From contig CM000150.2 of assembly GCA_000004695.1 (NCBI GenBank), positions 2,624,001 to 2,688,000 of the forward strand: DNA of 64,000 nt. The letters are read 5' to 3'. Below, in pieces: positions 33,392 through 43,176 of this stretch; position 1 is the first letter of the stretch, and the number at the start of each line of letters is the position of its first letter. Origin of the DNA: Dictyostelium discoideum (Eukaryota). The notes under the pieces were generated by a model. It was not told the DNA's origin and did not search any database. It saw only the letters and a list, made by a program, of their open reading frames with translations. The translations under genes were made by a program, and so were the position numbers.

Positions 33392-36300
33392 TTATTTTCT
33401 ATTTTTATCATTTGAAAATCTTTCTAAAACATTCATAAAAGAAACGGTTCTTCTTTGCATTAAACCTTTACTACCAGGAGGTGTAGATGATAATGGTGTT
33501 GCAGAATTTGGTGAAGTTTGTTCATGAATTGTACCAAGATGACCAGCACTTTGAGAAGCTTGATTTGGACTATTTACATTATTACTATAATAATAATTAT
33601 TATTATTATTATTATTGTTATTATTATTATTATTATTATTATTATTATTATTATTATTATTATTATTATTATTATTATTATTATTATTATAATTATTATT
33701 AATACTATTATTACTATTATTTAAATTACCATTTAAATTATTATTACTATTACTATTACTATTTGTTATTGAATTACTACTACCACCATTTAAATTAAAT
33801 TGAGAATCAGAACTAAAGATTGTATTTGATCTAGAGTTTGTATCATTTGGTAAAGCCCAAACACAAATACTTGAATCCCAACTACCAGACCAAACTTGTT
33901 TTTGAATTGGACGTTCATTGGTTTGTAATGGTTGATCATTTGATATGTAAACAAAACTACTAATTGCATCTTTATGTTTACCAGAATTTTCACTAACCAA
34001 ATGATAATCTTTTGTTGACCAAATTTTGATCGTTGTATCCCAACTTCCAGACCAAACGAAATCACCAACCAATTCCAATGTAAAGATTCTACTAGAGTGT
34101 GCATTTTCAATGGTATGAACTGATTGACAAGTTGAGGACCAAACTTTAATAGTACCATCAGAGGAAGCGGTCCAAACATGATCATCCACTTGAATCATTG
34201 CATGGATGGCTCTTTCGTGTGCCTTTGTCATTTGAACCACTCTTAGGGAGTTAACATCAATTCTTGCAATGTTTCCAAGTGTTGCAACCCAAACTTCTTG
34301 ATCTCTTCTCAATAGACATTCAATTGGTGAATCCAATGAAATCTTTCCTTTATATTTGGTTTTCTTTTTCAAATCATAGATGTGAATTGTATTTACAATG
34401 GTACCAACCCACATAGTATTACCGACTCTAGTTATACAGGAAGGACCTTCAACAGAGTAAGATTTGATTTTTTGGTAGGTATCAATATCCCAAATGGTAA
34501 TGGAATCATCTGCACTACCACACCAAACAGTATTCATATAGGGATAGAGACAATGAATTCTCTTTTTATCTTTATTTGCTTCGAATAATCTTTGAATGTA
34601 TTTCTCTTGACCTTCAATTTTCCAAGTTGAAATGAAACCATTACCTGTACCTGCCCAAACTTGACAACCATTACCACCAACCTTTATCAAACATTGAATT
34701 GTACCTTGATTTGGTAATAACTCTCTATTGAATTCATTTTGGAATGGTTGTATTGAAACTGAACCTCTTCTAGTTCTAGCTGAATCACCAACAATCGATG
34801 TATACATCACTTTTTTATTGGTAGATGTTGTAGAAGGAGCTGCAGTTGATGAAACAATTGGTGAATTTGGTAATGCATCTAATAATGCACTTAATCCAAC
34901 ATTTTCTAATTGTTGTTGTGATTGTGAATGTTGAAGTAATGAATTTGGTGATAATGGTTGTTCGTTATTACTATTACTATTATTAATTGAATTTGTTATA
35001 ATTCTACCATTACTTGTATTAATAATATTATCATCATTTGTTTTTGATCTATTTCTTGGTGTTGTTGCAACTGTTAATGTATTATCAATATCTAATAAAT
35101 CTGATGCAACACTTGTTGAATGACTAATTGTATCATGACTTTTATTACGATAGCTACTACCACTATCAGTTGAAAGTTGTCTCTTATGATCACTGTGAGT
35201 TGTAGTTGTAGTTGTTGTTATATTTTGTTTTGGAGTTTGATTTGAAGATTCACCTAATTCACTTACTGTTGATAGATTTAATGATTTTATAATTGGTGAA
35301 GTTGATGATGATTTACTTGGAGAGGATTGTTGTTGTTGTTGCTGCTGTTGCTGTTGCTGTTGATAAATATTTGATAAATGAATATCAGGAAACATTGCTT
35401 CTGCAATTTTAATTAAACGATCTTCAATCTCTGAGAATTTTGGTCTTTGTGAAGCATCAGTTTGCCAACATTCAACAATTAATTTCGAATACATTTCTGG
35501 ACAATCCTCTGGAATCTTTGGACGTTCACCATTGATTACTTTTTCTTCTATCAATGTCATGAAACCAATCTCACCGAAATAATCTTTTCTTGTAACCAAT
35601 TCCCAAAGAATGACACCAAATGCATAGACATCAGTTTGAGTTGAAGCTTCTTTAGTTTTATTTAAAATCTCTGGTGCTAACCATAATGGATTTTCAACGC
35701 CTCTATTTGTGATGGTATGTTGTAAACCCGATAGACCGAAATCTACAACCTTTGCAATGGTTTGAGCGTTTTCATTAATTGATGCCAATAGAATGTTTGG
35801 AGATTTCAAATCTCTATGAATGATTGGAGGTGTACTACTATGAAGGAAAGCCATACCACTTGAGATATCTAAAGCAACTTTTAATCTAAATAACCAACTG
35901 AATTCCATCTCTGGTTTATGTAGGAAACTATAGAGATTACCATGTGGTAAATATTCGGTTACAATACAAAGTGGATCTAAACAAAGACCTTTCAATTGTA
36001 CAATGTTTGGATGTTCCAACTCTGACATAACCCAACATTCTCTACGGAATTCATTGAATGCTTTCGAGAGTGAAATATCATTGATCTCAATTGGACTATC
36101 TAAATTTTCAATGGTTTTCAATTTTTTGACAGCAACCGTTTGACCTTGCCAACGTGCACGATAAACCAATGCAGCACCACCTTCACCAATCAATTCTTCA
36201 ATCATCAATTGGTCAAATGGAATTTTAGCACCTGTAAAATTGGACATCACTAAATCTGGTACCAATAGATCGGTTCTAACATTTGCATCATAGGTTAAAC

Positions 36301-42300: not shown

Positions 42301-43176
42301 TACCTCCACCACCACTATTTAACATACTACCAATATTACTACTACTATTATTATTGCTATTACTACTAAGTCCGTCATTATTTGATAAAACAATCTTTAC
42401 TAAATCCGCTATTTCTGATTCATTACCAACATATTGAAATGATGATACTATGTCTTCTATATCTATTATTTAAAAAAAAAAAAAAAAGAAATTGATTAAT
42501 TTTTTTTTTTTTTTTTTTTTTTTTTTAAAAAAAAAGATATCTATTTTAAATATTTTTATAATTTACCTTTATTTTGATTAAAACTATTTGTTAAAATTTC
42601 CAATGCTTTAAATAATATACCTAAATCATCGATTTGATTTTCAACTTCTGAAATTTCTGGTGCTGATTTATCTTCACCCAATTTCATTTCTAAAGTTGAC
42701 ATTGAAAATAAAGTTTTAAATATACTTTCTGGTTTCTTTTTTGATACTAATTTTGCATTACCTGGGTTTGTTTTTTTTTGTCTCTTTTTAAAAATTAATT
42801 CATCCTTTTTTTTTTTTAGAAAAAAAAAAAAAAAACAAACAAAAAAAAAAAAAATTAAAAAATTAATATCAATATTGTTTATAAAATATATATATATATA
42901 TGATTAACTTTTTTTTTTTTTTATAATTACATTATTTTTTATATTATATGAAGATAATGATTTATTTAAATCTGATAAAACATGAAATGAGATTGTTGCT
43001 GTTTTTTGAGGGACAATTAATTGAAATTGGGATGGGTCAAAATCTGATCTACCAAATTTATCAAGTAATAAACGTGACATCTCTCCAATTTTTGTTGTAT
43101 TATCAACTCTAACCATCTTTTTTAATGTATTTCCATCTGGTATGTGAAACTCTATAGAAAGATTTAAAATTTCCAT
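33392..43176 (-). CDS. pats1: Roco family protein kinase: RA/ubiquitin-like N-terminus, inactive myotubularin-like domain, LRRs, Roc GTPase, COR, Ser/Thr-Tyr kinase and C-terminal WD40 repeats. 3-exon model of 3184 aa. Probably pats1
   Basis: Minus-strand exons 43176..42931 (82 codons, MEILNLSIEFHIPDGNTLKKMVRVDNTTKIGE...), 42804..42567 (DELIFKKRQKK...LGILFKALEILTNSFNQNKG, ending in phase 1) and 42462..33392. Intron 1 is 42805-42930 (GTAATT..AAAAG). Intron 2 is 42463-42566 (GTAAAT..AATAG). Exon 3 contains LRRs (LxxLxLSxNxL, at least 12 of them), the Roc P-loop IVGQENVGKTTLL with DFAGQE, a kinase (VAVKKL, HRDLKSPNILL, DFGLS, APE) and WD40 repeats (WTASSDGTIKVW, WSGSWDTTIKIW). The total length of 3184 aa matches my recollection of Pats1, but this is unverified. 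Confidence 0.8.

Follow-up and report, generated by a model that had tools for sequence, protein, structure and literature searches.

The window analyzed here is a stretch of 64,000 nucleotides from Dictyostelium discoideum (assembly GCA_000004695.1, contig CM000150.2, positions 2,624,001 to 2,688,000), and on its minus strand lies an open reading frame (ORF) of 2977 codons, 42325..33392, that encodes a Roco-family kinase. The question raised by this locus is whether that ORF, the longest uninterrupted one, represents the whole gene. A preliminary sequence-only reading had claimed that it does not, proposing two short upstream exons and a product of 3184 amino acids with a Ras-association (RA)/ubiquitin-like N-terminus. 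With high confidence, we assign the locus to pats1 (DDB_G0269250), an IMLRK-type Roco-family kinase gene predicted to comprise three exons. The domain order of the protein would be an F0/RA-like ubiquitin-like domain, a basic linker, a degenerate RhoGAP fold, an inactive myotubularin domain, leucine-rich repeats (LRR), Roc, COR, kinase, and WD40.

Exon structure and its conservation in dictyostelids

A base-by-base rebuild of the spliced coding sequence gives 9555 nucleotides, which are translated without interruption into 3184 amino acids followed by a single terminal stop, and all the coordinates proposed for the three-exon model check. The ORF 43176..42931 serves as exon 1, with a GTAATT donor in phase 0, and the 79-codon exon 2 runs to a GTAAAT donor in phase 1 and joins exon 3 at a canonical acceptor, as had been anticipated. 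The exon 1/exon 2 junction of the model reads ...AAAAAATAAT|GATGAATTAATT... and the exon 2/exon 3 junction ...AATCAAAATAAAG|ATATAGAAGAC...; in another rendering, the spliced junctions are TCATATAATATAAAAAATAAT|GATGAATTAATTTTTAAAAAG and AGTTTTAATCAAAATAAAG|ATATAGAAGACATAGTATCA, respectively. The ATG at 43176 is the earliest one downstream of an in-frame stop. The 2977-codon ORF, which starts at residue Met208 of the model, is contained in exon 3. Two figures of the sequence-only reading have to be amended: the frame is open for 48 codons above Met208 instead of 50, and an ORF-only call would truncate the protein by 207 amino acids instead of about 160, the 161 amino acids of exons 1 and 2 being only part of the loss. 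Both introns fit the spliceosomal GT-AG type of Dictyostelium, with a GT donor, an AG acceptor, a length of about 100 nucleotides, and an AT content (93–94%) far above that of the exons (74–77%); the 5' intergenic DNA has 90% AT. Translation would thus begin at ATG 43176, after ordinary spliceosomal splicing has taken out both short, extremely AT-rich introns and joined the two small 5' exons to the 9 kb exon to give the protein of 3184 amino acids.

The strongest support for this structure is provided by comparison with other dictyostelids. A word-indexed homologue search with amino acids 1–195 returned only a D. purpureum fragment, which is colinear across both junctions, and an exhaustive HMMER representative search with this fragment returned only three further relatives. 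The set is therefore formed by D. purpureum DICPUDRAFT_81564 (partial), Polysphondylium violaceum KAF2071594.1 (2833 amino acids), Acytostelium subglobosum XP_012757658.1 (2717 amino acids), and Heterostelium album PPL_08655 (509 amino acids), and the N-terminal alignments are shallow (4–5 sequences) because only these four relatives were found. The P. violaceum and A. subglobosum proteins are full-length orthologues that open with the same N-terminal module, fused to the Myotub-LRR-Roc-COR-kinase body. The exons 1 of D. discoideum and D. purpureum are equally long, align without gaps, and share 77% nucleotide identity; their substitutions are distributed as 15/8/33 at codon positions 1/2/3. 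Exon 2 shows 81% nucleotide identity and a single indel of three nucleotides, so that indels come only in multiples of three. In D. purpureum both introns interrupt identical codons in identical phases, with lengths of 81 and 72 nucleotides that differ from those of D. discoideum and with no alignment between the introns of the two species.

The same intron positions recur beyond this pair, and the orthologue gene structures agree with the three-exon model in three dictyostelids. Intron 1 follows the same codon (...IKNN), in phase 0, in D. purpureum, P. violaceum (94 nucleotides), and A. subglobosum (106 nucleotides), and the position and phase of intron 2 are shared by D. purpureum and A. subglobosum (74 nucleotides). 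In H. album PPL_08655, one intron comes after ESYNINNN and another, in phase 1, precedes ILASFQYYGNE by a few codons. P. violaceum lacks intron 2, as mapping of the gene model on its contig showed: ...FQSAKDVDEILASFQY... is contiguous coding DNA, which therefore gives a direct view of what the spliced junction must encode. The residues around both splice junctions are invariant in four species, and so are many residues of exon 2. We consider this comparative evidence, drawn from genomic sequence, decisive for the three-exon model; it also indicates that models of this kind can be verified by mapping introns across species, even without transcripts.

The same comparison bears on a first competing view, in which the protein starts at Met208, the 2977-codon ORF is the whole product of a promoter in intron 2/exon 3, and the upstream ORFs are non-coding or unrelated. 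This view has in its favor that the frame is the longest uninterrupted one and that the DNA directly upstream, at 42463–42566, is very AT-rich and promoter-like. It has to contend with the position of Met208 inside a D. discoideum-specific Gly/Ser/Asn-rich insert of low complexity, which is missing from all four relatives, with the conservation of the 45 codons between the exon 3 acceptor and Met208 (SFQYVGNE...), and with the coding-type conservation of exons 1 and 2. Moreover, it would deprive the RhoGAP fold of its first helix and its finger-loop region, and the curated RefSeq protein has 3184 residues. We regard a start at Met208 as extremely unlikely.

A second competing view detaches exon 1, alone or with exon 2, from pats1 and makes it a small gene of its own, encoding an independent ubiquitin-like protein of which the unspliced ORF of 90 amino acids, 43176..42904, would be one form. 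Besides the existence of this ORF, it can appeal to H. album, where the homologous N-terminus is annotated as a gene of its own, PPL_08655. In P. violaceum and A. subglobosum, however, the N-terminus is annotated as continuous with a kinase of 2.7–2.8 thousand amino acids, and P. violaceum has no intron between the equivalents of exons 2 and 3. The domain boundaries do not favor such a division either, as exon 2 carries the last ubiquitin-like beta-strand and the RhoGAP fold extends over exons 2 and 3, and the H. album split looks like one gene fragmented into three adjacent same-strand models. The probability that we would give to a separate gene is close to nil.

The H. album locus deserves a description of its own. 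In GL290991.1, positions 10001–17713, the annotation apparently divides a single IMLRK gene of the pats1 clade into three neighboring genes on the same strand: PPL_08655, with the ubiquitin-like and RhoGAP-like domains, a model of 222 amino acids with the myotubularin domain, and a model of 1135 amino acids with LRR-Roc-COR-kinase. PPL_08655 is more distant than the other relatives (29% identity to D. purpureum) and includes an 18-residue mini-exon (TSSTKHTNKQTNIKIWTK) that none of the orthologues shares and that seems to be an artefact of annotation. Its interpretation as a Roco9 orthologue was dropped; we read it as a member of the pats1 clade because the orthologue table of Forbes et al. 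(PMC8923023) lists it directly under the pats1 row. The annotation of this gene family is thus still fragmentary in other dictyostelids, with the H. album gene split in three and the D. purpureum model truncated where its contig ends.

The orthologues also differ from D. discoideum in features that do not affect the model. P. violaceum and A. subglobosum have in common an additional phase-0 intron at ...LYLL|FSP/YSP... (locus positions 2825–2908 and 2740–2819, respectively), which D. discoideum lacks, the equivalent IQNIPLYLLFSHLK being contiguous in exon 3. Since P. violaceum is devoid of intron 2 and D. discoideum of this other intron, independent intron losses have taken place in pats1. Very long homopolymeric Asn, Gln, and Ser tracts occur in nearly every inter-domain linker of the D. 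discoideum exon 3, and even within the RhoGAP fold. The orthologues are without the long Gly/Ser/Asn inserts of D. discoideum; those of P. violaceum and A. subglobosum are 350–470 amino acids shorter, and low-complexity tracts are absent in their aligned N-terminus.

Identity with the curated protein and choice of splice sites

The sequence-only reading had equated the length of 3184 amino acids with that of Pats1, and this is indeed the length of RefSeq pats1, XP_645923.1, for which a kinase domain at residues 2247–2511 has been tabulated (PMC9573974). The Pfam kinase match covers residues 2041–2304 of the ORF, which become 2248–2511 after adding 207 and agree with the published limits; with the same offset, the LRR, Roc-COR, and WD40 coordinates coincide with those of XP_645923.1 as well. 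In addition, the supplement of the 2006 kinome paper (PMC1420674) prints the dictyBase Pats1 sequence DDB0191503 as MEILNLSIEFHIPDG...SSYNIKNNDELIFKKRQKK.... This sequence starts with MEILNLSIEF...YNIKNNDELIFKK, and its first ~117 residues are identical to the model. The string FNQNKDIEDIVSSFQY occurs once in that supplement and agrees with the model in all 16 residues that span junction 2. The curated protein has thus included the peptides of both junctions for some two decades, at least from 2006 on, and the three-exon structure is a rediscovery and not an annotation correction. The warning that an ORF-only annotation would truncate the protein is true of an ORF-only call; the existing annotation already uses the three-exon model.

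The model is thus already known and ordinary, being in use by dictyBase and RefSeq, and we detect no difference between it and curated pats1 (DDB_G0269250, DDB0191503, XP_645923.1), although poly-Asn tract lengths could differ between strains. The impact on annotation is small, given that the vestigial RhoGAP domain described below is also in print. It is nevertheless of interest that a reading of the sequence alone recovered the correct spliced model. Regarding the name, the designation "pats1 (roco2)" used in that reading follows one review (PMC8833889), whereas Kicka 2011 and PMC2927912 give Roco2 to QkgA.

Some observations weigh against this reading of gene and protein. The exact 3184-residue model, like the 2977-residue ORF, was not found by exact-sequence look-up in a collection of 15 billion proteins, and the identity with XP_645923.1 rests for this reason on length, domain coordinates, and two published stretches. 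Furthermore, in-frame alternative acceptors are available a few codons downstream of the proposed ones (42456, 42453, and 42447; also 42783), and they could yield minor isoforms. The agreement of phases, which had been put forward as support, does not help much here: phases 0 and 1 do agree, but brute-force enumeration gives 2294 combinations of two GT..AG introns with which the frame stays open from the 43176 ATG into the long ORF, so that matching phases are weak evidence by themselves. Among these combinations, the three-exon model is the longest, and it belongs to the 16 that have GTAA/GTAT donors and introns with more than 88% AT. The 16 differ solely by nearby in-frame acceptors and by a donor at 42621.

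That several models pass these strict donor and AT filters is what favors the possibility that a neighboring acceptor replaces or supplements 42462 or 42804, with products 2–7 amino acids shorter. We think that this is very unlikely. The orthologue residues align to DIEDIV and DELIFKK, with no gap there in three of the four species; the curated protein contains NQNKDIEDIV and NNDELIFKK; and the expected acceptor is the first AG past the poly-pyrimidine/AT tract. The alternative acceptors are possible only as minor isoforms. The features of the three-exon gene and of the predicted protein are collected in Table 1.

Table 1. Features of pats1 in the window; residue numbers refer to the 3184-residue model
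Feature	Residues	Position in the window	Strand	Details
Exon 1	codons 1-82 (MEILNLSIEF...YNIKNN)	43176..42931	-	246 nt; start codon 43176-43174; ends ...AAT AAT; 74% AT
Intron 1		42930..42805	-	126 nt; GTAATT...AAAAAG; phase 0; 92.9% AT
Exon 2	codons 83-161 and base 1 of codon 162	42804..42567	-	238 nt; 76.5% AT
Intron 2		42566..42463	-	104 nt; GTAAAT...AATAATAG; phase 1; 94.2% AT
Exon 3	last two bases of codon 162 to codon 3184	42462..33392	-	9071 nt including stop (33394..33392)
Putative ubiquitin-like domain (talin-F0/RA-like)	1-90	43176..42781, interrupted by intron 1	-	Pfam, hhalign
Vestigial RhoGAP-fold domain	~140-365	42633..41852	-	interrupted by intron 2 and, at aa ~190-255 and ~300-320, by low-complexity inserts
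Myotubularin-like domain	828-1277	40465..39116	-	Pfam Myotub-related, 235.9 bits
Leucine-rich repeats	~1389-1701	38782..37844	-	Pfam LRR_14, 66.6 bits; repeat coordinates from PMC9573974
Roc GTPase and COR-A/COR-B	1724-2231	37777..36254	-	Pfam Roc 78.5, COR-A 142.5, COR-B 124.9 bits
Protein kinase domain	2248-2511	36205..35414	-	Pfam PK_Tyr_Ser-Thr, 179.9 bits
WD40 beta-propeller	~2749-3035	34702..33842	-	Pfam beta-propeller/WD40 matches

The N-terminal domains

The talin-F0/RA-like assignment of residues 1–90 is the only element of this work that may be called mildly new; we seem to find no mention of a domain of this type in Pats1 in the accessible Roco literature. Most of it is encoded by exon 1, and the proposal of an RA/ubiquitin-like N-terminus is supported at the level of sequence profiles. 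Amino acids 1–107 score 30.0 bits with Pfam FERM_f0 (PF16511; cut-off 26.9) and 21.2 bits with Pfam RA (PF00788; cut-off 21.0), the latter covering only profile positions 5–54 of 93. In the three orthologues, FERM_f0 matches the same residues with 18.5–21.2 bits. When the family profile is compared by hhalign with the F0 domain of human talin-1, whose sequence was checked against PDB 6r9t/2kc1, Pats1 13–93 aligns to talin 9–87, over the entire domain of ~80 residues, with an E value of 2.3e-4 and a probability of 44%; against ubiquitin the E value is 0.096. Both the FERM_f0 and the talin-F0 alignments cross the exon 1/exon 2 junction.

On the other side of the balance, these profile scores are borderline: in a context of 397 amino acids FERM_f0 falls to 26.5 bits, just below its cut-off, and in the longer context RA falls to 18.0. 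Two AlphaFold2 runs with the 4–5-sequence alignments gave models with a mean predicted local distance difference test score (pLDDT) of 48.8 and 50.4. In the ubiquitin-like region these models have a strand-strand-helix-strand arrangement at amino acids 3–54 with a pLDDT of only ~40–50, the last strand being unformed, and a Foldseek search of the PDB with the second model gave noise, with nothing at E<=0.001. Neither the D. purpureum protein nor the family profile retrieved anything significant from the PDB sequences; the tail of a ubiquitin variant matched at E 0.12, and no RhoGAP was retrieved. Owing to the low pLDDT, the assignment of residues 1–90 to a ubiquitin-like beta-grasp of talin-F0/RA type is supported by profiles but not confirmed structurally.

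The likeness to talin extends to some details. The F0 domain of talin binds Rap1 via K15/R30/R35, and the conserved K19, R/K35, and K40 of Pats1 lie near the equivalents of these residues, in a register that is uncertain. In talin, F0 is followed by the basic segment RKKQRP, and in Pats1 the ubiquitin-like domain is followed by the similar KKRQKK. Unlike in talin and kindlin, no F1–F3 FERM lobes stand behind the F0-like domain of Pats1, which has a RhoGAP-fold domain instead. Exon 2 would encode the last ubiquitin-like strand (DELIFKK), the basic linker (KKRQKK...SKKKPESIFKTLFSMSTLEMKLG), and the first RhoGAP-fold helix. The linker (amino acids 91–139, 42780–42634), KKRQKKTNPGNAKLVSKKKPESIFKTLFSMSTLEMKLG, belongs to the best conserved parts of the N-terminus, many of its residues being invariant in four species, and has no match to any family; it may serve as a polybasic segment for membrane binding or nuclear localisation, with a short helix behind it. 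The three orthologues have the same succession of ubiquitin-like domain, basic linker, and RhoGAP-like domain, with 50–73% identity to D. discoideum.

Residues ~140–365 are a degenerate and cryptic version of the all-helical RhoGAP/BH fold, which the sequence-only reading had omitted between the ubiquitin-like and myotubularin domains. The D. purpureum orthologue passes the Pfam RhoGAP threshold (PF00620; 25.5 against 24.5), A. subglobosum and H. album score 13.1 and 14.4, and the D. discoideum sequence has no Pfam RhoGAP match, either with or without its low-complexity inserts. The helical core of the fold reaches an AlphaFold2 pLDDT of 63–86. The first helix (LGILFKALEILTNSF) is encoded in exon 2 and the remainder in exon 3; since intron 2 splits the domain in this way, the ORF-only product would decapitate it. 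An hhalign comparison of the family profile with p50RhoGAP, whose sequence was verified, places the helices colinearly and is not significant (E 0.4).

This domain apparently has its arginine finger replaced by a glutamine, judging from the motif SFQYVGNE at residues 169–176, in which Gln171 (42436..42434) is invariant. The pats1 family motif (I/S)FQY(S/V)G resembles the GIFRxSG of RhoGAP domains, which contains Arg85 of p50RhoGAP. The location of Gln171 at the finger position relies on this motif and on anchoring by the flanking helices; the non-significant hhalign alignment to p50RhoGAP gaps the segment differently. An invariant Gln where the catalytic Arg is expected would point to a conserved function in binding and not to an enzyme in decay. 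Catalytically dead members of the RhoGAP/BH group are known, such as p85 BH and OCRL, from which Pats1 differs in the apparent Gln finger and in its two low-complexity inserts. According to the supplement of Forbes et al. 2021 (PMC8923023), Pats1, Roco9, and Roco10 carry an N-terminal RhoGAP, described as "vestigial" in the Pats1 of D. discoideum and D. purpureum; in an earlier survey of myotubularins, Roco9 and some Entamoeba IMLRKs were the only proteins to which a RhoGAP was attributed.

With a putative ubiquitin fold of Ras-association type next to a RhoGAP fold, Pats1 is reminiscent of ARAP3 and ARHGAP20 (RA and RhoGAP; also myosin IXb). We infer that the first two modules of Pats1 would be binding platforms for small GTPases, not enzymes, and that the N-terminal modules would supply inputs to the Roc-COR-kinase core. 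Pats1 is needed for cytokinesis (PMC2927912). One could speculate that the F0-like domain and the finger-less RhoGAP form a tandem GTPase docking module, in which the former binds Ras/Rap and the pseudo-GAP binds Rac/Rho, recruiting or gating the Roc-COR-kinase core at the cleavage furrow. This proposal is tentative and, in our opinion, rather unlikely to hold in this form. The tandem would be analogous to the Rap-regulated RA and RhoGAP pairs of ARAP3 and ARHGAP20, but with its input directed to an LRRK2-like kinase. For the field of Roco/LRRK2-type kinases, the apparent talin-F0/RA-like start of Pats1 may be of interest as a candidate Ras/Rap-binding input.

The kinase body and the neighborhood of pats1

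The rest of the protein has the features expected for its family. Roc is immediately followed by COR-A and COR-B, as in Roco proteins, and the order of inactive myotubularin, LRR, Roc-COR, and kinase is that of the IMLRK architecture. The catalytic loop of MTM1 is VHCSDGWDRT. In Pats1, the CX5R loop of the myotubularin domain is replaced by ...VLIQNSSSGPDIE..., with no Cys or Arg, and the domain has been described as inactive (PMC2927912). Published WD40 repeats of pats1 span 2780–3031 (PMC9573974). Roco9, Roco10, and Entamoeba IMLRK have the same overall plan of RhoGAP, inactive myotubularin, LRR, Roc, COR, and kinase; Pats1 is unlike them in having a C-terminal WD40 propeller and a more degenerate RhoGAP. 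In the kinome tree (PMC1420674), Roco9 is the sister kinase of Pats1.

Concerning the neighborhood, an upstream ORF on the same strand, 45397..44447 (-), matches the 7tm_3 family of class-C G-protein-coupled receptors (154 bits) and is probably the last exon of a glutamate-receptor-like gene. From its stop to the pats1 ATG there are ~1.27 kb with 90% AT, long poly-A/T runs, and a (CA)n tract at ~43445–43480. Downstream, the convergent ORF 31370–33301 (+) encodes a FNIP-repeat protein (214.6 bits). ARAGORN reports a tRNA-Asn of 82 nucleotides with an unusual ATT anticodon at 47531–47612 (-), which is probably a false positive, because Rfam finds no RNA family at gathering score within 42000–48500. 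The same program places a tRNA-Glu(TTC) at 63279–63351 (+).

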